A stretch of 63,380 nt of DNA, filler included, from Hausera hauseri (Eukaryota), in the NCBI GenBank assembly GCA_046269625.1. It is 11 parts of 11 records of this genome, joined end to end, with 100 filler letters (N's around TTAATTAATTAA, not from the genome) between each part and the next. Parts side by side here need not be neighbours in the genome. Positions count along the whole stretch, not along the records: positions 24,065 to 28,383 come from JBJURY010637664.1; 10 more parts are not named here. One strand, written 5' to 3'. A program made the translations under genes and the position numbers. How positions within the stretch are numbered: the first letter of the stretch is position 1; each line of letters opens with the position of its first letter. Under the pieces are notes generated by a model. The model was not told the DNA's origin. It did no database searches and saw only the letters and a list, made by a program, of their open reading frames with translations. Shown in pieces: positions 12,823 to 63,380 of this stretch.

Positions 12823-13178
12823 TCAAACTAAAATCTTACGACGACGACGTTTGCTTATAGCTGATGAACTCGATGATGCTCTACGACGTTTTATCAAGCC
12901 ACTGCCAGCGAACTGTTTTTGACTGATTCAACGATTCCCGGTGCAGCGCTTTTTATTTCTGACAAGGCATGTTCTTCAATGATGTTCTTCAACTTGTTTT
13001 AATATAGTACGTCCTGCGCTGTTTTTGCTGCCACGGCTCCAATATGCTTCAACACCGGAAATGCTAAACGTGCCAATGTACGCAACCATCCAGATCCGTA
13101 CTGTTTACCAACGAAGTACGGCTGTTCAACACCCTGCTGCGGTTTACTGTAAATGGAAACGATTTCGCAATAAATCAT
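12823..13178 (-). pseudogene. Small virion protein with amphipathic helix and Arg-rich tail (adintovirus cupiennin-like), absent from the ORF track
   Basis: Hand translation: MIYCEIVSIYSKPQQGVEQPYFVGKQYGSGWLRTLARLAFPVLKHIGAVAAKTAQDVLY*...KQFAGSGLIKRRRASSSSSAISKRRRRKILV. Lies between penton and MCP and is conserved in copy 2. Confidence 0.75.
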
Positions 13179-13194
13179 ATTGCTGTTGTTGTTC

Positions 13195-14251
13195 TTAGAT
13201 TCGACGGAAATTAAGAGTTAGACTGGTTGTGGTACCGTACGGAAAATCAATAAGGTAGCCCGCGTCACATTGGATATTCACTTTAACATTGTTTATAGAT
13301 GTGGATGCCACAGGTAGGTACACTGGATTATCGCGCTTGACAGTGACATTGTCGTAAGCAGTATATTTGCTGCTTTCCGGATAAATAGGACATAGTAGTA
13401 GTACACGTACTCCACCGACCAAAATCGGTTCGGTGACATTCACGAAAATGTATATTTGATTTAGTCTCGTTTTCAGTTCAAGTTTAAGTGTTGCAACATG
13501 CTCCGCCAAAGATGTTCAAACCGCTGTTTTTCGAAACCTAATAACATGGCCAAAGCTTTGTCCAATGAAATGTCGACAATATCCTTAGCTAGTTGAAATT
13601 TAATCAACCAACTTGCATCTGACTCGAAAACTTTAAATATCGCCTTATATTTTTGATTTGAAGAAAAGTGTTGACATAGATGTTCTATAAATTCGCAATA
13701 GACATTGTCTCCAATTGATGCGTATGACGTTGACACCCTTTTTGTTGTATTGGTAAATTTCACCGTTGGCTGGTAATATTTGGGACTTAATCTTGTATCA
13801 ACTACATATTCACTTTAATATTTGTACCTTTGTACTCTGTATTTTTAAATCCAAATTTCTGCGCTATCTCAGAGGACTGAGTTGTAACAGTAAATTCAAA
13901 ATCTGCCACAAAATCTAAGTTTTGATCTGTAATAAAACACCGATTCTGCCGTGTAAGCCGTAATTTGTTTCGGTCGTGCAAATGCCCGATTCTCCAACTG
14001 TTATTTTATTGTTAGTAAGTGTCAGAAAACAAGAATGTGTTTTGGTTTCAGTAACAGTCTTGTTGTACGTTATTTTCATACTACCTTTAAATGTTACCAG
14101 TGCGTAGGGAAAGTTAAATTCAATCAGTGCAACCTCCCATTGTCCAGATAAATCATAAAGGATTGTTCTAATCTACAACGTATTCAATGGCGAAATTGTT
14201 CGGACGAGTCGTCGGACAACTGTTGCTTGGCAACACCATGTAAATACACAT
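13195..14251 (-). pseudogene. Polinton minor capsid protein (penton, PX), paralog A
   Basis: N-terminal MCIYMVLPSNSC...DLSGQWEVALIEFNFP and C-terminal IYIFVNVTEPILVGG...NPVYLPV...NIQCDAGYLIDF...LTLNFRR are typical Polinton penton termini. Several frameshifts. Confidence 0.8.
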
Positions 14252-14949: not shown

Positions 14950-15828
14950 TTAAATTACAATTTTTGTAATAACCAGTACCGTATTAAAACAACATACACA
15001 CAATAAACTATTTTCCAAAAACGGACCACATTTCTCAACGAAAAGGGCATAGTACAAGTTTATACTGCTTTCGTCTGCCGATTTTGCGTCTTTCTTACGT
15101 TCATTGCACCATTGGGCTAAATTGTTCAAAAGCGGAGGTTTACAATCGTCCGGCTGTGCAGTTCTGGCTAACCACTGTATTTTCTCATCATCTCTGTCGT
15201 CGTGGTCTTTTTCATTATTTAGTAGTATTTTCGTCATTTGTCTATGGATGATAATATCTGGATACCGTCGAATAGGTGACGTGAAATGCGTATACAACGG
15301 CACATTCAGTGCAAAATGAGAACAGTTGAAAAGGCTGTCTTCACTACTCTCGCAATCATCACAGAAATAAATGGCGAGTTGCATTGATTTGCTGTAAATG
15401 TTCAAAATTGATAAATAATTCGGATCGGTTTTGTCGAATACACTTAATATTTTCTGGAAATCATCAGTTGCACTAGTGTCTAATTGAATATCAGACCAAC
15501 CCATGGATTTGAGTTGTATGTTGATATCTTCAACAGCTTTTATAGTAGGACTCGGGTGACATCGAAGAAAAGTTGTTTTTGGCAAATGTTTGTGGATATA
15601 TTCTGCAACAGACATGTTTGCCCGTAACATCCATTCCTCAATCATATGATTGCTAGCAGATAACGTATAGGTTTTATAGCCGAGTGGAGAATCTCTCTCA
15701 TCATTTAATATAAAGCCTATTTTAGGCTTATTAATCCAAAGAGCTCCGGAATTAAATCTATTTTCTCTCATTGATGAAGCAAGCTTCAGTTTAGGCGCAG
15801 AATTAATCTCTTCTGTTTCTGCAGACAC
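14950..15828 (-). CDS. dis3l2: DIS3-like exonuclease 2 (RNase II/RNB domain), internal exon or fragment
   Basis: RF.SGAL, SNHMIEEWMLRANMSVA, LRCHPSP, MQLAIYFC, HFALNVPLYTHFTSPIRRYPDIIIHR, WCNERK and YYALFVEKCGP. Candidate acceptor (tctgcag, ~15819) and donor (gtatgt, ~14996) bracket the homology. Confidence 0.88.
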   Translation of the reverse strand: MSAETEEINSAPKLKLASSMRENRFNSGALWINKPKIGFILNDERDSPLGYKTYTLSASNHMIEEWMLRANMSVAEYIHKHLPKTTFLRCHPSPTIKAVEDINIQLKSMGWSDIQLDTSATDDFQKILSVFDKTDPNYLSILNIYSKSMQLAIYFCDDCESSEDSLFNCSHFALNVPLYTHFTSPIRRYPDIIIHRQMTKILLNNEKDHDDRDDEKIQWLARTAQPDDCKPPLLNNLAQWCNERKKDAKSADESSINLYYALFVEKCGPFLENSLLCVCCFNTVLVITKIVI

Positions 15829-16024
15829 AACAACAATGAGAATTGTTGCAAAGGATATTACGGTCTTTGGTTCAGCATGTTTGGCCTTATTACAAGAACT
15901 TGGTCTTTTTCATATTAATGTCAAAAAATTGTTATTTTTATCAAAAACCGCTTGATGTGCCTCTAATTAATTGAGATAAATGCGTTTTGTAAAACCACAA
16001 TGTAACAAGAAAACATCGAACGCC

Positions 16025-16781: not shown

Positions 16782-19700
16782 CTATATTGGCTGAATGTGA
16801 CTCTGCGTGTTGTGTATTTGTGCAGTGTGTTTGTTTGCAGAGATTGAAGTTGGGAAAAAATTGGTAGATTTTGGTGTAGGTAATGTGTTGTGCGAAGATG
16901 AGCCAGAATAAAGAGAAGAAGAAGACAAAAAAGGAAGAGGGATTGCTGAAGACGGATGGTTAAAGGTGTTAAGAAGAGTGTTAGAAGAGGAAGGAATGAT
17001 GAAAGGTGTAGTGACGGATAAAGGAAGAGATGAAAGAGTTGGAGTAGAGACTGGAGTTGTGTTGAGTGAAAGAGTGGAAAAAGAAGATGACACAGAAGGA
17101 GTGGTAGCGATAGGAAGAGTGGTAGGGATAGAAGAAGAATGTGTAGAAAATGATGAAGCAAGACTAGGCGCAGAAGAGGGAGGTGAAAATTGTGTAGCAA
17201 TAGATGTAGTGATAGCAAGAAGTTGAGGAGTAAAAAAGGAGGTTGACGTGTTGCTTGGTAAAGTGTCTTCGAAAAAGAAAGCGGCATTTAAGTTGGTAAT
17301 GTGTACTGTGAAGTCTTTGCCTTCCTTGGAGATGGTGGCGTTATACGAGTGTAGCTGTAACAGTTTGTAGGGCCCCAGGTACCGTGGCTGGAAACCGCAA
17401 GGAGCTTGATTCTTCACCCATACGAATTTAACCGTATACAAATCTTCGGGTAAGTATGTATTGTCTTTGTGAAGTATCCTGCAGAACGAATCTTTACTGA
17501 CCTCAACGAAGTGATTTTGCGCCGCCCGTATCGTCTCATCTGTGGGAGTGTCATCTAGGGTGGTTAGTTTGAACAATGATTGAAGAGGAGCTTCGAATAA
17601 GGCTTCAGTAGGTGAGCATCCTGTAGAAGTGGACGGAGTATTCCGCCAGCCGAGCAGAACAAACGGAAGATGATTCGTCAAACTACTGTTAGAATCTGCT
17701 AAAATTCTTAGTGAAGTTTTCAATGTTCGGTGGAAACGAATAGAAGGCCATTCGATTGTGGATGATAAGGCGTAGTATGTACGTTGTGGATCCCCAGTCG
17801 GTTAACAAGGGATTTGAGCAGGTTGCATTCAAACTGTGGACCATGATCCGTGATGATGAAGCGAGGTAATCCAAACCTGCTAATCCATGTACGAATGAAA
17901 ACGTCAGCTATGGTGTTTGTATTTGTGCTCCGCAGAGGGATGACTTCTGGCCATCGCGAGGAACGGTCCATCGTGGTAAGGATGAATTGGTGACAGTTGT
18001 CTGGAGGAAGAGGTCTATCGATGTCGATATGCACGGACTCGAAACGCGATATGCAGGGAAAGTGGAATAGTCGTGGCTTTAAATGCTTAGTTGTTTTGTA
18101 TTGTTGGCAAGCCACGCACTCCTTAACCCATGCCTGCACATCAGAGCGCATTGACGGCCATCTTACTTGTCGATGAAGTAGACAAAAATTGGCTTTAGCA
18201 CCAGAATGGTGTAGTGAATGTACGTGGTAAAATGCTTGCCTTTGCAATGAAGGTGCTAGAATTATTACTGAATGGCCTGGTTTGGAGGTGTTTAAGGCCA
18301 CGCCGTCAACGATTGTGCAAGATTTAAAAGACTTAAGCATGTCTTGAGGTGGTTGGTTCTGTTGAAGTTGTTCTTGCGCAAAAATCGGATGAAAGGAAAT
18401 CGAACTAACCGACCTAGATAAAAAATCATCAACCAAATTGTTAACTCCGTTAGTATGTTTAATATCGAAGTTAAATGTCGATAAATATGATATTTGTTGT
18501 TCTTGGCGTGTGAAAGGGTGTTTCGTGGCCATAATGTTAAGTAAAGGCTTGTGATCTGTTTGTAGAGTGAAATGACGAGCGACAAGTAGGTGGGAAAAAT
18601 GCTTTAAAGCGAGAACGATGGTCAATAGTTCTCGATCAAATGTGGAATAACTGGTTCCAGATGCTATTAGCTTGCGAGAGAAAAATTCTAATGGTTGGTT
18701 TTCTTCATTGTGGATTTGGTGGAGCACGGCGCCTACAGCAGTGGTTGACGCGTCCGTAGTATGGATGAGTTCTGCATCAGGCTTGGGAAAGGCTAGAATA
18801 TCTATGGTTTTGACGCCTTCGCGTAGCTTATCGAATTTGTCAACCAATTTAGGTGTCCACTGGATTGGCTGATGTTTTTTGCCGCCGCTTAGGTGTGCGA
18901 ATGGTTCTGTCAATTCCGAGCAATGTGGTACATATTTATGTACAAAGTGTAGTGTGCCAAGAAAGCTACGCATTTCGGTGGTCGTACGTGGCAACTGGAT
19001 GTTTTTAAGACCTTCGACTTGGTCTGATTAGGGAGAATGACCGTCTGGTGTAATAATATGGCCTAAAGGTTAATGCGTTTTTTGAAAAATTGGCATTTGT
19101 CAAAATTGACTTGGAGATTATGGTTGTTGAGACGTTGAAATATTGCGCGAAGGTGTTCTTCGTGTTATTTGGCCGAAGATGAAACGACTAAAATATCGTC
19201 GATATGAGGGTGTGCTAACGGGAAATCGTAGAGAATTGAATCGATGTGCCACTGAAAAGTTTGTGCGACATTCCGCAAACCGAATGGCATAAATAGATAT
19301 TTGTAGAGGCCAAAATGAGTAGTTACTGCGGTTTTTTCAATGTCTTCGAGTGCCACCGGTAATTGATAGTATGCTTTAGCCAGATCAATGGTTGAATAAA
19401 TGGTGGTTGAATTAAGGCGACGCAAGACATCCTTGATCAGTGGTAAAGGATATGCGTCCATGATAGTCAAGTTATTAAGCTGTCGGTAGTCACCGCATGG
19501 TCTAAAAGTACCATCCTTTTTTGTACAACATGTAACGTTGATGACCAAGGAGATTTGGAACGGCGTACTATGCCGGAACGTTCCAGTTCAAGAAATTCGA
19601 CTTCTGCAGCCTGTCTACGACGAGGTTACAGAGGCCGTACTTTTTGGCGTATTGGACGTTGGTGCTGTGTTACTACGTGGTGTAAAGTGCTGTTGGTGGG

Positions 19701-22871: not shown

Positions 22872-23715
22872 GATGACATCACAAGGTGGTAACTGTCGAC
22901 CATCAATTTCCAGTGGTGTTTTCAACTTGCAAATTCCATCTGCGTGACAATTCTTGTGCTTTGTCGCCCTTCGATAACCAATCGCAAAATGCGGGAATAT
23001 CGTCAAGTCTTTCTCGAGGTTCTCGTTTCATTACACCTGATAATCCCTTCTGAAGATCCATATTTGACTTTTCTTGATCTGAAAATCCACAGAGAAAGCA
23101 TAATTCTCCTGGAATATTTAATGTTATGTCTTTATCTCCGTCTTTTGTAGATGCCTTTTCTTCCTCCGTTTGAGGTTTTCGTGGGCCGCGTCGAATTGTT
23201 GGCTTCTTTGTTTTTGTTAAAACTAATGGCTAATCCTTAGCCTGCAATCGAATATTGTATCTTTCTTTAAAATATTCGCCAAAGGTCATTGTTCGACCAC
23301 TGATGTCAAACTTTTCATCGATACTCATTTCTTTAATATCACTTATCCGATAAGTTTTACTATTATGTTTAGTTATTACGTCTCGTCCTATTAATTGGTC
23401 AATATTACGTCTATCGTATACTTTAAGCACAGAGTTATCATTCAATACTCGATTTATTCGTTCAATGTACATCGTCATTATAATGTCCCCGTTGGGTTTC
23501 GTGCCTCTTAGCAAATTTGTCGAAAAACCATCGGGAACCTTGAAGTTGTTCATTTCGAAAAACGTTGATCCAATATTCTTTGAAACACCACCACGACTTG
23601 TATTTGTCGACAAAAAGTAACCTTTTCCTATTTTGTCTTGGCCTAAACATATATGAAGGTTATTCATAAGTACATTTATCATTTTATAATATTCCTCAAT
23701 TTCGGGTAATTCGTA
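22872..23715 (-). pseudogene. piwi: PIWI-clade Argonaute fragment (L1-PAZ-L2), disrupted
   Basis: LIGRDVITKHNSKTYRISDI...TFGEYFKERYNIRLQAKD*PLV, then by hand LNIPGELCFLCGFSDQEKSNMDLQKGLSGVMKREPRERL...RWNLQV...PLEIDGRQLPP. In-frame TAG at 23230 plus frameshifts; MID and PIWI domains absent. Confidence 0.88.
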
Positions 23716-24840
23716 ATTTACAACATTGTATTGAGTAATATTTCGTTTGTAGTAATCAGCTTTTTTAGAAATTTTTTAATATCAAGAAATCGCTTGTTTT
23801 TAGTCCATTTTAATCTTCTTAAGACCATCACACTGGTATATTCTACAGCTCTAAATTCCCTTGGTTTAAAACCTAATACAGAGAAAACCATAATTATATT
23901 CATTGAACTATAGACGTAGTGCCGTCATATAGTTTCAAGAAAAATAAAAATTTAAATATATAAANNNNNNNNNNNNNNNNNNNNNNNNNNNNNNNNNNNN
24001 NNNNNNNNTTAATTAATTAANNNNNNNNNNNNNNNNNNNNNNNNNNNNNNNNNNNNNNNNNNNNTGTTCTGTGGCTTTTTGACTTGTTTTTTGAACTGTT
24101 TCGGTTTGGATTGTTATTTTTTAATGCGGTTTTCGAATTTGCTTAGGTGGATTCTTGCTCTTCAAGCTCATTTTTGACTTTTACTTTTTGGGATTTTTGT
24201 TGATTGGGGAAATGGTTATTTCTTTCACAGGTTTCAAATTCAAAAAGGTCAGTTTGGGATTTTGATCGATTTTTTGATTCAGATTTTTTGGGTAATTAAG
24301 AGATCCTAACACCGTTAATTCTAACCTCGGTGGTTGCAACTGGTTTGTCAATTAACTATCTTACTTCCCCATTTTGGTACAGTTCATTATTTATGCAATT
24401 GGCATTTTCCGTTTCCTGACTCCTAACTGGCGGCTGTATTTCTTTTTTTCTGAAAGTCTGTATCTCATGGATTCTTGAGATTGTTGATTGTATTTCGTTT
24501 GTTCTAGGTATTCTAGGTGAATAAATTATTCCATGGTCGTCGATCGCTGAACGACAATATGGGACAGATGTTCTTTTCGTTTGGAACACCTTACGCAATA
24601 TACCTTAATGTTTTGTTCCCTCATAGGGATCCTCAAGGCTGAACGGTTTTCTATAGATATCAGTTTGATTTGAACTCATAGATTGTTTCTCACAGTCTTC
24701 ATATATAGGTGTAGTTGGCGGTAATATTGGTACCGGTGGTTTCATAACGGAATAGTTTTTATTTTCTTTTTATCCGGGAGACAGCGTCTCCTCCCTTAGG
24801 CTCGTCATCATTAGAATCATTTCTTCGCATTTTTATGCTT

Positions 24841-26326
24841 CTAAACTTCCATTTGTAATAAAATATGTTTCCTTTTACGTTTCCGATAGTGAGAACCAAG
24901 ATGTCGTTCAACATCCGCTTCCCATCTACTTTCTTCGTAAGCTTTTAAGAATTTACCAAATGGTGTGATAATAGTCGTTAAAATTTTACACGAAAATCGT
25001 GTTAGGGTGAATATCTAATATCCTTTTACGATCGCTTGAATTACTGCTTTAACCAGTTGAATTAAGAAATAAGTTTCTAAAAATCCAGATCCGGCTTGTT
25101 CAAGGATTAAAAATCTTCCCAAAATTTTATACAAGATTTCTGTAGTCACTCTTTGATAATGGTTAACGCCAACTAGTGATTCTCATTTCGCCTGGTAACG
25201 AGTATCCTCTAATATTGTATGTATAGTTAGGTTTAGTTCATGTGTACGCTGACGTGAGAAAAAAAGAAATTGTCTAAATCCTTCAACTTCTTTTGGTCTG
25301 TAAATACCTTTGGCTGCGGTGTCTTGAAATTTATCATCAGTTATTCCTTTTACTAAGTTCGTTCCTGTTAGCTTTATGGATGGAGTGATTATATCTCCGT
25401 TTGGTAGACTTATCTAATCAGTTTCGCTACGCCTAAACATAGGTTCTTATAGACTCGTTTTACAATCCTTCAAAATTGATGGTTGAGTTGAGTTTGCCAG
25501 TAAAAATCCTCAATTCGTATATCTTGAGTCTCAATCATGAATGTTTTGGCATTTATTTCTATTTCAGCTACAAAAAATTCTTCATAGTTAGCAGCATACA
25601 TTACCACATCGCATCGTGTGAGTACGTCCTTTATCACAAATTTTAGTCCATGAGTATCAGAAATTAGTATAGTAGGTGTAGGTTGTTCAGATACGTCGTC
25701 TCGTGTTTTCGAGTTAGAATCTATACTATTTAAATAACGTTTTCCTGTGGTTTCATTAAACTTTGGTTCTTTAATTTTAATAAAATTTCAGTCGGTCTTG
25801 GCCGGAAGTTCCCAAATTAGTACTGAACTTCTAAAAGCATAAGTGTCGCCTTGTATGTGTCACTTTTGGTTTTCAGTGTAAAGCATAGAAACTCTATGAA
25901 ACATCACGTTTTGTGTTCGCATCTCGGTTTCATAGAAGTTTACAACCACTATATTTTATTCTATTCCTTTCCAGCATCATATTCTGCACCGTTACAGTGT
26001 CCGTTGTACATATCTAGTTTTCCTGCTGCTACTTTAAATGCTCTAATTATTTTTCCTTGCTGCATTTCAAGTTCCATGCAATCCAATTGTAGTCTACCTG
26101 CTTCTCTAGCTTGCTTACAATGCTGGCGTTCCAAGTTCATTCGAATTGGTGGGGTCGTTGGCTTAATTATCGATGACTGTCCGTGCATTATAACACAATG
26201 GAAAATACTGCGGGATCGTGACAACATGCATTCTATTGCATCTAATGAGACTAACTCTCGCAGTTGATACAGTATGTAGTTTTTCACTTTTGTTTCTAAT
26301 TTATGCGCTCTTGCATTTTCGCACAT
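24841..26326 (-). pseudogene. Chuvirus-like (Monjiviricetes) fusion glycoprotein, decayed endogenous copy
   Basis: Ordered motifs: LYQ...IECMLSRSRSIFHCVIMHGQSS...C; AAGKLDMYNGHCNGAEY; LIWE; LKFVIKDVLTRCDVVMYAANYEEFFV; AAKGIYRPKEVEGFRQFL; TM region KILGRFLILEQAGSGFLETYFLIQLVKAVIQAIVKGY. Several stops, frameshifts and an apparent internal deletion. Confidence 0.78.
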
Positions 26327-26535
26327 TTATAAATCCATTAATAAATAATTTTGGCCAATTTTAAATTTGTCGCAGTCTCATATCGTCAGAGCTCCCATTT
26401 GCCTTATTAACATCATCACAGTTAGGAAGTTAATTAGCCAGTTGGACTCGTTTACTCCTACGATGTCTTCGAGCCTACTATTACTATTGATAGAGGAGGG
26501 CCTATTTTGAAGTTCTTCTTTTCAAATATTTTGGA

Positions 26536-28383
26536 AGTAGTGCGAAAATGGAGGTTTTTCCTCACCCACACCCGGGGGTGCCGAATCGATATTGCACATG
26601 TGCCAATCGATAGTGCACACTGTGCACTATCGATCGGTAGCGTGCTAGGCAACGGTACCGCTAGGCACTGTTGCAATGCACATTTTTGCAGTTTTGACAA
26701 ATTGATCGATGAATAGTGTAGTATTAATTAAATCGATCGGGACAAAGTGCTAATCGATAAAGCACATCGAGGCGCATCGATTGGTGCACAGTGCAGATGT
26801 GCAAAAATTAATAATATAAGATTTCCGATAAATCTAAAATCACTGATCGGCACTCGGCACCGGATGCAATCGGTAGCACACATGACGGGCTATGTGAATG
26901 TGCAGTTAGAATTTAAATCGATTGATTGGTTTTCGAATAATTCGCAAGTGTGGCAGAACCGCCACATGCCTTTCCGGTATTAATTTTAAATCAATAATAT
27001 CACTATGGCACATATACTGGCGGGTGCAGTACTTGATGTAGTATCGTTCATTGCGATATTCGAGTGCGGTGTGCACTTGGATACGGTTGCCAGGGCACTT
27101 TTTACTTTTCACACTTTTGCAGTTGTGCAGCGTATTTTGATGGAATTGATCGGGGTCAAGTGCAGGTGAATAGAGCACATCGAGATGCACCTTGATATAT
27201 TGCGTGCAGTGCAAAAACATGTGTGCAAGTGTGCAAAAATTAATAATATCGAATTTCCGATATTTCCAATATGGAAGATTAGCACTCGGCACAGGGTGCA
27301 TTCGAACACAAACACCGTGTAGTATATAAATGTGCAGTAAGAATTTAAATTTATCGATTAGTTATCGATTAATGTCGATTCAAAGTGCAAATCGGCTATA
27401 TTTTCAACATGTTTTCAAGTGCTAAGTAAGCAGAATTTGATCCAACATTGAGCGGGGACAGATAGGAAATGGATTATGGAGAATTCGAATCTGTACTTGA
27501 AAGTTCGAAATTTGAAGATTTTCCAACTCGAATATCGAAGTTCGAACTATTCGAAAAATCTAACAGGAGAAATCGATTTATCGTATTCGAAAACCCCTAC
27601 GTGCATAAAAAGTATTCCATAAAAATGTACTATATAGGCATAAAATCAATATTTTGAATTAAGAAAATGTGCATTTGAAGCGCAATGAAGCGGAAATCGA
27701 TAAATCTAATAGCGGGCCTGGATAGGAAGTTATGTATGCCGAATTGGAATATGGCATCAGGTATTCGAAATTGAGCTTACAAGTCGAATACTTGGCTATA
27801 CGAACTCGAATATTCGGTCAAGCATGCATTATTCGAAGAATCTAATGACGGCATTCGATTATCCATGGTCGAAAACCTATATTGCAATCACGATTAGTGC
27901 GGTACAATGCAATGCAGTGTATAAAATCAAGGTTTTTCAAATATTATAAAAGTTCTTGTTAAATTCAAAGTCATTATTATATTGATTAAGCAATTGAGTT
28001 GAGTTTGAAGGTGAAGCACATTGAAATCGGTAAATCTTTAAGTGCACATGGGTAGGAAAGCATATATGGCGAATCCGATTCTGGTGTCAGATGATCGAAA
28101 ACATTATTCGAACTCGAATAAATATCGATTTGAACTTGAATAATCGGTGAAGCATGCATTATTCAAAGAATCTGATAGTTTTAATCGATTTCCCCTGGTC
28201 GAAAACCTATATTGCAATCACGATTAGTGCGGTGCAATGCAATGCAGTGTATAAAATCAAGGTTTTTCAAATATGCTAAAAGTTCTTGCTAAATTCAAAG
28301 TCATTCTTATATTGATTAAGCAATTGAGTTGAGTTTGAAGGTGAAGCACATTGAAATCGGTAAATCTTTAAGTGCACATGGGT
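26536..28383 (+). mobile_element. Terminus of a TGCAC-rich repeat family beginning AGTAGT (candidate Polinton-type terminal inverted repeat or non-autonomous derivative)
   Basis: agtagtgcgaaaatg...atcgatattgcacatgtgccaatcgatagtgcacac is homologous in inverse orientation to 53590-53897. Homology ends at AGTAGT in both copies. Confidence 0.55.
27460..28383. repeat. Tandem subrepeats of ~260-330 bp
   Basis: 27820-28053 is near-identical to 28150-28383 (period 330). More diverged units start near 27460 and 27720 (gataggaa...gaatt.gaat). Confidence 0.85.
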
Positions 28384-38596: not shown

Positions 38597-38842
38597 NNNN
38601 NNNNNNNNNNNNNNNNNNNNNNNNNNNNNNNNNNNNNNNNTTAATTAATTAANNNNNNNNNNNNNNNNNNNNNNNNNNNNNNNNNNNNNNNNNNNNTTCC
38701 GTTGTTAGCAATCTTCGAACGATTTCGTCATCTCTGGCTTTCCTGCCTTTCAACTGATAAAGTTTCGTTGTTCCTTTTGGTCTGCCACGGTTTCTTTTAT
38801 CCGCTTGAGTTTGTTCTGATATGGGAATGTTTACCCCCGTTT

Positions 38843-39150
38843 CTATTTTTGAGCCTCATGCTGATGTTCGATTTCCTGTGTTTCTTTTTGCCCAATATCA
38901 GTAACAATTTCGTCAATTATTTCTTGTTCAGACTGTTTATAAGTAACACACACAGGGTTGTATCGGTTTTCCCAGATACCTAGTTCATATAAAGTTTCGT
39001 AATCCAACAGAGTGCGTCCATAAAAATACAACTCTACTTCTCCTCGAGGCTGAACAATCCCATTGATATTATATTTCAATGTCATTATCGTGTCTAATTA
39101 CTTCATTCTTAGAACATGGAAATCTGGGTTATACTGTTGTAGCGTAACCA
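38843..39150 (-). pseudogene. Ubiquitin-like domain downstream of gag
   Basis: VLRMK*LDTIMTLKYNINGIVQPRGEVELYFYGRTLLDYETLYELGI aligns by eye with ubiquitin DTIENVKAKI...[25 protein letters not shown]. No C-terminal di-Gly. Confidence 0.62.
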
Positions 39151-39267
39151 TTACTTTAGGGTTTTCTCCGACTATTTTCACTCTATCCGCACATTGATAA
39201 ATTATGTATCGTACGATATTCTGATATGGGCTTGTACCCTCAGCATACATTAACAGCAAAAATCCAA

Positions 39268-40863
39268 TTAATTAGCAAATTGTTGATGGCTGATTGTTTG
39301 CGATAGTAGCATAGACAGATCTTGCCTAAACCGAGTACCATCGATTAGTTCTTGGTTGGCATAGCTGGATATTTTCCGAACTATTTCTACGCCATCCTGA
39401 TCTAAGTCCACAGATGAAGACTCATAACTTGGGGATTTTTCCTTTATTTTCTTTCTCCTTATTCTTTTTATGTTCTCCTTAAGTTTACTTTCTTCACGCG
39501 ATTCACTTTTTTCACTTTCACTTCCAGAAGGTAAATTAAGTTCCGGAGTCTTCAATTCTTCTTCTTGTATCAAAGGTTTATCCTTTTTCTTAACCCTATT
39601 CTTTTCAACATCCGATTCTGATGCAGAAGTCTTTTTAGGTCTACCAACCGGAGCTATAATAGCATCTTCACTCAACATTTTGTGTCTTTTTTCACAGACC
39701 TGCTGTTCTTTTAATTCGAGGTGTAACTGTTTTAATTCGGCTATCTTATCCTCCTCATCTAACGTATTGGTCTTACTTTCTTTTAATTTTGATCTAATCA
39801 TTTGTTGAAGTTTCTCTATTGTCTCTTCGGGCTCTGTGTCTGTAGTTTCATGCTCATTATCTGTGTCGGATATATTACCGACTATATCAACATTCTTTTT
39901 CTTTTGATTTGATTGTCTTTGGTTGGGACAGGAGCGAGCCATATGTCCATATTTTTGGCATGCAAAACACAAGGGCTGCCCATCTTGGTTAACTGGAGGC
40001 TTTTTCATCGCAGACTTCTGAGGTTGGTTCTGCCAATTATTCTGAGATGGTTTTTGCCATGTAACTTTCTTTTGAGACGGTTGCTCTAGTTGATTTTGAT
40101 ACTTTTTGGGCGATTTTTGAAAATTTTGAAAATTTTTCTTTTGAAAAATTTTCGTCTTTTTATCATCAATATTCTTAGAAGGCCTCTTTACGTTTTCGAG
40201 CCTTTCAAAATTTATCTCAATCTTTCTTGCCTTAGAAACAGCTTCTTTATATGTTCCTGGATCAGCGACAGTAATATAATTTTGAATTTCTTTATTGACT
40301 CCATAGCAAAATTGAGCCAAGAGGGCATCTTCCCTTATATCACCATCTGTATAAGCTCTCTGAGCTAACTTCTGAAGGGCACATGCATATTCTTGCACGG
40401 TTTCGCCTTTTCTTTGACGCCTTCTATTGAATTCTCCAATTCGACCCTTTTCTGACGGGTCTACTAAGAGCCTTTCCTCAAGAGCGTCCTTAAGACTAGC
40501 CCAATCAGCTTTATCCTCTTCGTCATTTATTTGAGTATAAGCACTAAGTGCTATACCCTTGAGGTGTAAAGGGAGCCGCTTCATCCTCAGCTCATCAGTC
40601 CAATTGAAACTTTCTGAGTACATTTCGTACTGCATAATAAACTCACTGTAGTTCTGATCCGGTTTGGCTTCATATTTATCCATAGGTAGCACCACTGTTC
40701 CATTTGGGTTACTGCCCAAACTGGGTCCCAATCCTGAGGACATTTCAAGATTCTGTTCTGCTATTTGAGGATGAGAATCTCTGTCTGATTCGGAACTACT
40801 CCTTGCCGAATCAGTACGTGAAATTGTATTAGCGTTAGTCCTACTTCGGGTACTATACGCCAG
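39268..40863 (-). CDS. gag: Retrotransposon Gag with CCHC zinc knuckle and long charged C-terminal extension
   Basis: LPLHLKGIALSAY, RRQRKGETVQEYACALQKLA, QFCYGV, CFACQKYGHMARSC. The frame stays open 40 codons upstream of ATG 40743, to a CTG at 40863 (LAYSTRSR). Confidence 0.9.
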   Translation of the reverse strand: MAYSTRSRTNANTISRTDSARSSSESDRDSHPQIAEQNLEMSSGLGPSLGSNPNGTVVLPMDKYEAKPDQNYSEFIMQYEMYSESFNWTDELRMKRLPLHLKGIALSAYTQINDEEDKADWASLKDALEERLLVDPSEKGRIGEFNRRRQRKGETVQEYACALQKLAQRAYTDGDIREDALLAQFCYGVNKEIQNYITVADPGTYKEAVSKARKIEINFERLENVKRPSKNIDDKKTKIFQKKNFQNFQKSPKKYQNQLEQPSQKKVTWQKPSQNNWQNQPQKSAMKKPPVNQDGQPLCFACQKYGHMARSCPNQRQSNQKKKNVDIVGNISDTDNEHETTDTEPEETIEKLQQMIRSKLKESKTNTLDEEDKIAELKQLHLELKEQQVCEKRHKMLSEDAIIAPVGRPKKTSASESDVEKNRVKKKDKPLIQEEELKTPELNLPSGSESEKSESREESKLKENIKRIRRKKIKEKSPSYESSSVDLDQDGVEIVRKISSYANQELIDGTRFRQDLSMLLSQTISHQQFAN

Positions 40864-40869
40864 TGTGCC

Positions 40870-40887
40870 TCCTCACTCGGGACACCA
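40870..40887 (-). promoter_or_regulatory. Primer-binding site (TGGTGTCCCGAGTGAGGA; resembles a tRNA-Leu-type PBS)
   Basis: Begins TGG one nt after the LTR's terminal CA. Similar to the tRNA-Leu PBS TGGTGTCAGAAGTGGGA. Confidence 0.7.
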
Positions 40888-40888
40888 G

Positions 40889-41583
40889 TGATAAGATTGT
40901 GAGTTAAAGGGTAGCTTGGGTATTTAACTCCCAAACTTATACTACTAAACTGACTTTAAAATAAGTCTTGAGTCTTTTTACTCAAGACCAAAAGTACTAT
41001 ATTCAATCTTAAAAGCAGCCTGTGGGGTCTGCTTGACTTTTAAATAACCTTATTGTGGGTTCGGTCAGGAGGTACACTGGCCAAACTAACCCTTATTTTT
41101 ATCAAGTTAAAAGTATACCTGATGATTACGTATCAGGTAGAAAAATTGTAATTTTGGGTGTTCTCTTTTATTAATCTACTTAACAAACTTCTTTAAATAC
41201 GTATTAAATTACAAAAGAATTTTATAAATAAGTTTTAATAATATCTACAATACAACTTTACAAAAATACAAAACTTACAAGAATCAATCATGCTCGAAGA
41301 CATTCAAAAATTTGTGCGAGCGACATATAAATTTGGTGGCGTATATATACTATTTCGAAGTCATAAAAAAATTCCAAATAAATCATTCCGAATTGTGGAA
41401 AATTACCACGAAATCACGCGAAGAATAATAAAATTACAAAGTTTAAGATTATATAATAATCACATTAAGCAAGTCACACGGTTCAAATAAAACAATTCAA
41501 GGTTTAAAGTTTCAACAATTAAATCAGTTCAGAAAGTTTAAAGTTTCGACAATTGACGAAAGTTTCGAAATCAAGTTTCGACA
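40889..41583 (-). repeat. Long terminal repeat (~695 bp)
   Basis: Minus strand TGTCGAAAC...TTATCA (TG...CA), preceded by a purine tract and followed by the PBS. TATA-like tatatata at ~41345 and AATAAA at ~41170. Confidence 0.8.
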
Positions 41584-44054
41584 CCTCCCTTGCCGGATAA
41601 AGCCGTCCTCGGCTTTAATAAGAAGACTTTTGTGGAACCATCTTCACGTTTGTAGCGAACTGCATCTATATCGAGCCATTCACCATCTTTTATTTTTCTT
41701 TTGAGGGTTATTGTATTTTTCTTCATCTTTTTACTTTTCATAAGATCTATTATATCAATGTTCTCATTAGTATCAAGATTTTCTTGAAAAGTCAATTGGC
41801 TAGATGTTGATGGAATGGGTTCTAGTTGAATAGATAATTCTTTGATATGCGTCTCTTGGATAGGCGCTTGTTGAATGAGCGTCTCTTGGGTAGACGCTTG
41901 TTGAATGGGCACCTTTTGAATAGGCGCTTCTTCCATAGAAGTATCTGTGTCTAGGTGTTCAAGTTCTTTTTGATATTTGGGAATAGACTAATATATTTTT
42001 AAGATAGTCAACGCTTTGTATTTGCTTCTCTGTGGATAATTTTTATTATTTTGAGTTCGAATTTGTTTCACGGTTCTTTCACCTTTTAAGTTTATTAATT
42101 GATTATAGAATAGATCTCTCATACCTTGTAAGTTCCCATAATCGCAAGGTATGACACGAGTAATTATATCATATAGGTTAAATCCTATAATTACTTTTCC
42201 CGTTATAAATTTTCTAACTGTACACGCAGCCAGATAAGGATCCATTTGTCCAATTAAATCTAATTCTTTTAAGCCAGTAATATGGCTATTATAATTATCA
42301 ATTTTATCTCTGGGGCAAACTTTCTTATCGAGTAAGATTTTTGCATTCAGATCCATAAGAGTGACCTCGATTAAACTGACGTCTTTCTTTCTAATAGGAT
42401 CCATCAAATATGCCGTATTTACGGCTATTATTATTAGATCGTCTTTAGATGTAACCGGGAATCTAAGGAAGGGGATCCCTTCTCGTATTTTCTGTTCCTT
42501 TGGTATTGGGGTAGAATATTGCGGGAGATCATATTCGGGACGAAATACTGTTTCTTTTCGCATGACCTCTATATGTATCACTGGAGATGGTCCATAATAG
42601 GTTCGAAGGGTAATTGTAACGTTTTTATAAAATGCGAATCTAAACAAATTGTAGGCATAGGTGTTAGATCCATTGTGTCAATAATATTGGTTGAATTAGC
42701 TCTACTTCTTAATTGAATTGTCTGTTTGAGGACTGAAATATAAACAGCTAGAGCTTTTTCACCAATGTCTATAAGGTCTGACAAATTTGTTGATGTGTTT
42801 GATAGCTTTATGATTAAGCTACTTCTTGGGGTTACCGAATGTCCTTTTAAATTATTAGGGATCAGTGATGTCTTGGATAATAGATAAAGTCTTTGTTGAC
42901 TGTGGCTGATAGGTTGGAAAAGGAATTGTAATAGAAACTGTTTGGTCGCTAAATCTTTTCTGCACCTTCTTTATATATAAAAAAATCATTAATAGCGGCC
43001 AAAATAAATTGGATATATATATTTCTTTATTCATTGAATGTTTATGTTGAAAGTAGGTCGCCAAGAATTTAGCGGCCTCATCCTGTATGTGTGTACATAG
43101 ACACAGGATTGTGTCTTTTAACGGTCGTGTACGCCGTTTAGAATCGGTTTGCTCATGCGCTTGCCGGTTTTCATTGATTAACTGTTTAAAATTAACAGTC
43201 TTTGAGGTTATTTCATCATTCATGGGAGGCGCGCCTAAATCGTCTATAGAATCACCCTGGGAATCTTCCCTTAATAATTTTAATTGGTTTATTATTTCTT
43301 TTGTTTTTCGTTGCCGCCGTCTTATTTTTGAACAATAAACTATTGGAGGGATAAGTAGGCCTAATTTTACTAATAAAGCGCTTAATGCAATCACTATCCA
43401 AAAATATTTATCAGTATTTGTGTTATATTTTAGTGTGGTGGTTTCTTTAGTAAATTTTGTGGTTGACATAGTTATTTGTTTTAGAGTTTTTCCCAGCGAT
43501 AATTTATTTGTATATTTCTTCCTTCGTCCAATTCTGTTATAATAACTTTATAATTAGTATTGGCCCTCAGGGACACACAAGCCGACGTTGGCTCTTCTGG
43601 AGTTATAATTCCTTCGCCGATCATTTTGTTATAAAGAAAACATTCAAACTTTACATTGGTACTTTGCAGGTTGGATACAGTGATAATCAGAGAATATGAT
43701 GTCGGCTGTACTATTATATCTAAATCTTTTACAATTTTGGAACGAATTTCAAATGATGGACTGGTTATTATACTTCGTGTTGATAATATTGTTTTTGTTG
43801 AAGCAATCGTTGTTGTCACTTGAAAACTTTCCATTATTTCAGGTCCATCTGACCATGTTGACCAGGTATATCCGTTAGTCGTTGTTCGATAATATATTTG
43901 ATATTGCCGATTAAATGGGAAAGGACAACAGAAGTACGGATTCTGATAACTCATTTTACATTTTATAATATCAGTTCTATTTTGAATCCAATATTCTATA
44001 GTACGATATTCAGTTATTGGGACTTCTGTTTCAGCCGTTACGCATGGCCCACTT
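41571..44054 (-). pseudogene. Env-position accessory ORF: FN3(WSxWS)-FN3-Thr-rich stalk-TM-cytoplasmic region-inactive DEDDh (REX4/ISG20-like) exonuclease fold-short repeats
   Basis: Five abutting ORFs (43481-43954, 42855-43469, 42578-42784, 41988-42647, 41571-41936) join through three frameshifts and one in-frame TAG. Motifs: YQIYYRTTTNGYTWSTWS; LRANTNYKVII; TM YFWIVIALSALLVKLGLLIPPIVYC followed by KIRRRQRK; IAVNTAY...EVTLMD...LLDKKVCP...NYNSHITGLK...GKVIIGFNL. Confidence 0.7.
41584..41594 (-). promoter_or_regulatory. Polypurine tract
   Basis: GGCAAGGGAGG immediately precedes the LTR's TG. Confidence 0.7.
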
Positions 44055-47701: not shown

Positions 47702-48120
<419 letters not shown>

Positions 48121-63224: not shown

Positions 63225-63380
63225 CACTATTTCCTTTTTGGATCGCTGAAACTAATTCAAGTGGTCCCTGTGCTGGTTATAAAATTGTTCAGTTGATTCC
63301 AACAACTATAGAACAACCGGGACAAACATGGGCCCGTTTACCGTGCACCGTCGTGGCTCCATAATACTGCTCCATTACAC

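Follow-up and report, generated by a model that had tools for sequence, protein, structure and literature searches.

We identified the fossil of a chuvirus/herpes-gB-type (class III) glycoprotein gene at ~24841-26452 (minus strand) in the window, the 63,380-nucleotide stretch of DNA from the Hausera hauseri assembly GCA_046269625.1 that we analysed. It is very probably a dead env copy of gB/chuvirus type, internally deleted, from a multicopy Ty3/gypsy LTR retroelement of a free-living flatworm (probably a triclad). The window consists of 11 pieces with 100-nt N/TTAATTAATTAA/N linkers between them, and the adjacency of the pieces is artificial; since they are unlinked, genes elsewhere in the window are not neighbours of the env fossil, and anything off its own piece (24065-28383, 4319 nt) is evidence on the assembly, not on the neighbourhood of the fossil. 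The features of this piece are as follows:

24065..24311 (no strand): very high-copy host repeat, downstream boundary; summed depth ~1e5-2.6e5
24308..24340 (minus strand): probable start of a retroviral-type aspartic protease; weak, cut off before the catalytic motif
24341..24840 (minus strand): decayed coding-like linker after env, followed through chained contigs ~85% alike; its length is within the env-to-protease range of the relatives
24841..25464 (minus strand): C-terminal part of the env pseudogene in the third frame, with 2 stops; it covers the end of the ectodomain, a transmembrane region (~25083-25020), and the tail
25395..25964 (minus strand): env pseudogene, middle ectodomain; second frame, at least 3 stops; an internal deletion of ~100-120 residues follows
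25979..26452 (minus strand): env pseudogene, N-terminal part, with a signal-peptide-like stretch and the ectodomain start; 2 in-frame stops
26525..28383 (no strand): very high-copy host repeats, upstream boundary; 330-nt and ~430-nt units, depth 1e5-5e5

A decayed gene for a class III-type glycoprotein

The initial annotation had called a Monjiviricetes/chuvirus-type fusion glycoprotein, and profile matches to Pfam family PF24664 (Monjiviricetes_fusion; curated cut-off 27 bits) bear this out beyond chance. The 121-aa ORF alone scored 28.7 bits (E 4e-7); together with its upstream part, with stops read as X, it scored 35.9 bits, from model position 6; and the C-terminal frame scored 46 bits (E 2.6e-12). 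A profile built from 10 intact env relatives gave three colinear matches: the N part (model 6-158 at 26434-25979, 81.6 bits), the middle (model 164-365 at 25964-25395, 52.6 bits), and the C part (model 447-654 at 25464-24835, 98.5 bits). The N-terminal part (25979..26452) is further defined by PF24664 (model 6-158, E 2.8e-9), by tblastn of relative P0007, which aligns from 26452, and by a hydropathy peak at 26443; the C-terminal part (24841..25464) is defined by PF24664 (model 471-601), 14 phmmer hits, and a hydropathy peak at 25083. The middle part (25395..25964) has no Pfam match on its own, and is placed by the relatives' profile (E 6e-18). The features of the class are present: a signal peptide-like stretch (peak 26443), a cysteine-rich ectodomain, and a C-terminal transmembrane segment (peak 25083).

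Five motifs quoted in the initial annotation are all present on the minus strand and in the order given there, but they lie in three frames, which reading through stops alone cannot join. The frame changes at two places, near 25970 and around 25410-25460; at least seven stops interrupt the gene (2+3+2 across the three pieces used), and ~100-120 residues are missing in a central deletion; because of these stops, frameshifts, and the deletion, this copy cannot encode a working protein. The extent proposed earlier also had to be revised at both counts: the gene begins ~125 nt further upstream than 26326, with the signal-peptide-like stretch near 26452-26400 (tblastn and hydropathy), and it is not near-full-length, with 450 of 605 reference positions covered and a central gap that takes 4 of the 14 conserved cysteine columns (seven others are kept, and three are lost).

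Relatives of the fossil are retroelement polyproteins

We utilized phmmer to compare the C-terminal 190 residues with a library of 1.84 billion representative proteins, which yielded 14 hits, all 14 matching PF24664. An aspartic protease follows env in 10 of the 14 (in one below the Pfam cut-off), three also have RT and RNase H, two also have an integrase, and three are short env-only fragments; in one, relative P0005, there is a weak Bcl-2 match just before env. The pol domains of the relatives match RVT_1, RT_RNaseH, Integrase_H2C2, and rve, a BEL-type family not being among them, and in those that are intact, env forms a segment of a single long polyprotein and is preceded by an internal signal peptide. 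For example, a single ORF of 3426 aa in locus L001 encodes env-PR-RT-RH-IN, and an exonuclease ORF (PF00929 match) comes after it. A gag with a CCHC knuckle is found ahead of env in P0012 and, by sequence, also in P0002 and P0009. From these relatives, the order of the element behind the fossil would most likely be gag-env-protease-RT-RNase H-integrase. The initial annotation had offered either an endogenous chuvirus-like element or the env of a flatworm retroelement, and had cited capture by arthropod BEL/Pao elements: the flatworm retroelement reading is well supported, the nearest proteins being retroelement polyproteins, and the carrier looks like a Ty3/gypsy element that has its env placed after gag and before the protease, not like the BEL/Pao type.

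Some relatives have further peculiarities. In L001 (2-12107), P0007, P0012, and P0018, pol holds additional transmembrane segments and several aspartic-protease domains in tandem, and P0018 (4844 aa) has an ankyrin match. P0002 (HBK71150.1), a Gag-Env-Pol polyprotein of 2627 aa, is deposited as part of a Flavobacteriaceae metagenome-assembled genome; it most likely stems from a mis-binned animal contig.

A second search, from P0005, added three polyprotein-like envs and two stand-alone glycoproteins at 24% identity; the latter were used as arthropod chu-type references, since one of them clusters with a Culex pipiens protein. The fold comparison was run on P0005, not on the fossil: the predicted model (pLDDT 65.3, pTM 0.36, low global confidence) matched chuvirus-like glycoproteins (E 4e-38) and, in the PDB, herpesvirus gB chains (E 4e-12, with TM-scores of only 0.15-0.23). 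Other searches returned little: a word-indexed protein search with the C-terminal env piece gave none of 282 candidates, where the full phmmer search succeeded; scans of viral contigs upheld no candidate stretch, of 4 in one scan and 89 in another; and a metagenome scan confirmed 1 of 197 candidates.

Affinity of the env

For pairwise comparison by blastp we used 15 relatives, 12 polyprotein-type envs (for P0020-P0022 the label is our own) and 3 arthropod chu-type glycoproteins, with no named chuvirus glycoprotein in the set; it was partly picked by likeness to the query, and the phmmer ranking was against the whole library. The N-terminal and middle pieces each matched all 12 polyprotein-type envs and the C-terminal piece matched 10 of them (the other two are truncated), while none of the three env pieces matched any of the 3 arthropod chu-type glycoproteins at E<=10. 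Identities to the polyprotein-type envs versus the arthropod chu-type proteins were 24-31% versus 20% for the N-terminal piece, 16-26% versus 8-10% for the middle, and 19-28% versus 16-17% for the C-terminal piece. Judged by eye, the motif that follows the last retained cysteine resembles the A/T-N-Y type of the six S. mediterranea envs, not the T-[ED]-H-P form that insect and chu-type proteins have at this place. The best identity to any database relative is ~26%, over 442 columns, and because it is only this high, the env of the fossil probably forms a separate family.

In a 16-row tree the fossil lies on a long branch (1.94), and an AU test did not reject its grouping with the three near-identical arthropod chu-type rows (p 0.244); one branch with 100/100 reflects the near-identity of these three rows, and is not counted as support.

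Copy number and flanks

The contig evidence comes from two public runs that contain the stretch, compared at 80% likeness; depths are summed contig depths, not copy numbers, and the better run, X1, may be the source sample and is not independent. RNA runs were absent from those listed as containing the stretch, which says nothing about expression. In X1, near-identical env contigs have depth 8-17, the depth over the element between the repeats is 460-25000, and 10-111 distinct contigs have other letters at the listed sites inside env. Several long contigs are ~85% alike, and diverged env contigs are found in both runs. The env family is multicopy, not a single insertion.

The 4.3-kb piece, bounded by repeats, has no gag, RT, or integrase, and nine frame translations covering it gave no chuviral N- or L-like Pfam family; an Rfam search of 24065-28383 gave no match. 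The upstream repeat reaches ~26525, leaving ~25 open codons without an in-frame Met before the signal stretch, which would fit an internal signal peptide in a polyprotein. One upstream repeat unit is also present at 53637-53846, on another piece, and the repeat end (26525-26640) is formed by a palindrome and a C/G-rich hairpin-like tip.

The coding-like sequence that had been noted downstream is present, at 24312-24840, but none of its three frames has a Pfam match. A series of overlapping related contigs, ~85% alike, leads from the end of env to 24312, where both runs stop matching. In nine relatives the distance between env and protease is 131-391 residues, and the spacing in the fossil fits this range. 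We also checked the piece for the residues found ahead of the protease active site in the relatives: 24308..24340 was the best of 8568 sites, with 4 of 200 shuffles as high, in a post hoc comparison, and a full protease HMM did not detect the start (73 of 100 shuffles scored as high). A protease start downstream of env, interrupted by the high-copy repeat, is probable, if weakly so, on these residues. Visual inspection also suggested a CCHC-like motif near 24600-24550, which was dropped because it had no Pfam support.

Host and other pieces of the window

The flatworm host assumed at the outset is likely a planarian, judging from a PIWI fragment (PAZ) at 23230-23775 (minus strand) on another piece: it shares 66% identity with S. 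mediterranea PIWI2 and 65% with a D. japonica Piwi, and five of its six hits are named triclad proteins. We infer that the env piece comes from the same animal as the PIWI piece. Next to this fragment, which is of planarian PIWI-1/2 type, lie a gypsy pol of the ordinary, env-less kind (17610-19700) and an ORF with an RNB domain (14950-15909). The best hits of a GAPDH (47702-48120) are animal-type and resolve no phylum.

Two features on a separate piece, unlinked to the fossil, resemble parts of the relatives:

39268..40872 (minus strand): gag with CCHC knuckle (tblastn of P0009 residues 44-253, E 7.5e-19; PF00098)
41988..42677 (minus strand): exonuclease ORF (tblastn of L001 ORF2, which follows pol in L001, E 2e-7)

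This gag is related to the Gag of P0009, a Gag-Env-protease relative. Since gag and exonuclease occur on one piece (38697-44054), the same element class is present in the assembly. The order on the minus strand of this piece is transmembrane/fibronectin-like ORFs (by eye), the exonuclease ORF, ~700 nt of non-coding sequence, and the gag with CCHC knuckle, which looks like the 3′ end of one L001-like element and then the gag of the next, in a tandem junction or a collapsed repeat.

Elsewhere, of the pieces at 11633-14072, 56611-59080, and 59182-63380, two share 2.5 kb at 85% identity, and the last (59182-63380) has decayed DNA-polymerase-like ORFs; the ORFs of the sharing pieces and of the last piece, which have no Pfam match, resemble Polinton/Maverick parts. 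The first 11 kb or so of the window (1-11000) is a degenerate TTCG/TTCT-type microsatellite, yielding long spurious ORFs.

Alternative origins

An endogenous viral element, in which host retroelements reverse-transcribed the mRNA of a jingchuvirus-like glycoprotein and the integrated copy was duplicated later, would account for the match to PF24664 and for the AU test, which leaves the arthropod chu-type grouping standing, and flatworms are hosts of jingchuviruses (PMC9241645). We nevertheless consider it very unlikely: the closest proteins are retroelement polyproteins, the nine frame translations hold no N- or L-like Pfam match, the flanks are repeats and linker, and many diverged copies run on into the downstream linker; moreover, jingchuviruses are described in the same source from parasitic Neodermata only, with none in the free-living species it covers. 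Much the same slight chance is left for the env of some other mobile element (BEL/Pao, a Polinton/Maverick fusogen, or a fragment carried by the flanking repeat). One upstream repeat unit does recur on a piece with Polinton-like ORFs (a label we assume, with no Pfam match), but this sharing makes no link to that piece, because the repeat is extremely abundant and many of its copies pass into other sequence at 26584. Mosquito BEL/Pao elements with chuviral glycoproteins do exist (PMC7642597), but the pol domains of the fossil's relatives are of the RVT_1, RT_RNaseH, Integrase_H2C2, and rve families, with none of BEL type listed. Troyka elements were rejected as carrier, as no envelope is encoded in the elements described (PMC12440569).

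Since the window's pieces are unlinked, this one could in principle come from a contaminant or prey animal (an arthropod or other) instead of a flatworm. That is scarcely credible given that its repeats are hugely abundant in X1 (maybe the source sample), alongside near-identical env contigs of depth 8-17, that one repeat is common to another piece of the window, and that the env is unlike arthropod chu-type proteins. We leave a small chance, jointly, to two further readings. In one, triclads would have captured a jingchuvirus-type fusogen separately and at a deep level, with the env family branching between arthropod chuvirus glycoproteins and known Gag-Env-Pol envs; in the other, the family would be the amplified remains of a jingchuvirus, not yet described, that infected free-living flatworms. 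Either, if true, would bear on the direction in which the fusogen moved, from RNA viruses to retroelements or the reverse.

Under the preferred reading, as a Ty3/gypsy env, signal peptidase and the protease of the element would free a membrane-anchored, trimeric class III fusogen from the polyprotein; the fusogen would coat budding particles, enabling entry into other cells and thus spread from cell to cell; and RT and integrase would make new genomic copies. The fossil copy would have been inserted that way, and would then have decayed, its flanks being lost to high-copy repeats.

Comparison with known systems

The novelty implied by the initial annotation lacks support, such elements being already published for S. 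mediterranea, Prostheceraeus, and Macrostomum: GAG-ENV-POL gypsy errantiviruses with an HSV/gB-type ENV are described in Platyhelminthes (Chary and Hayashi, eLife, PMC13524379). Nine are listed there, namely Smed_errantivirus_1-6 (S. mediterranea, up to 215 copies), Pcro_1-2 (Prostheceraeus), and Mlig_2 (Macrostomum), and the tables there also give ENV-POL hits from Dugesia japonica and Girardia tigrina. As described, these elements share with the family of the fossil a gB/chuvirus-type env, a multicopy state, a free-living flatworm host, and an env upstream of pol (for the fossil, from its relatives), and their ectodomains appear, by eye, closer to the fossil than insect env does; in contrast to them, the fossil copy is decayed and deleted, and has neither gag nor pol.

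Similarly, in the giant planarian gypsy element Burro/GYPSM1, a Bcl-2-like domain precedes env and the protease follows it, all in frame, and D. japonica is reported to contain fragments of this element that are decaying (Arkhipova and Yushenova, 2019, PMC6431247). This layout (Bcl-2-like, env, and protease in one polyprotein) resembles that of P0005, with its weak Bcl-2 match before env. The description there relates the Burro env by homology to gypsy Env and to fusion proteins of mononegaviruses; it may therefore belong to another class of fusogen than the fossil. In the strict sense described, Burro is >30 kb, with Bcl-2, BIR, ankyrin, and MATH domains and long LTRs; the fossil's 4.3-kb piece has none of these accessory domains or LTRs.

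The mosquito BEL/Pao element Anakin carries a chuviral glycoprotein (PMC7642597). This protein and the Chuviridae/Monjiviricetes glycoproteins belong to the same Pfam family (PF24664) as the fossil family and may share its predicted class III fold, whereas the fossil is far from arthropod chu-type proteins (0 of 3 matched), and its carrier looks like Ty3/gypsy.

Significance

The phenomenon is already in print, and the present copy is a dead fragment, a fairly ordinary genomic fossil. With it, the env-bearing gypsy elements of planarians gain a divergent family, and it makes clear that a Monjiviricetes_fusion match in an invertebrate genome should not be classed as an endogenous chuvirus by default. 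The long branch of this env family could help to date the exchange of fusogens between RNA viruses and retroelements.
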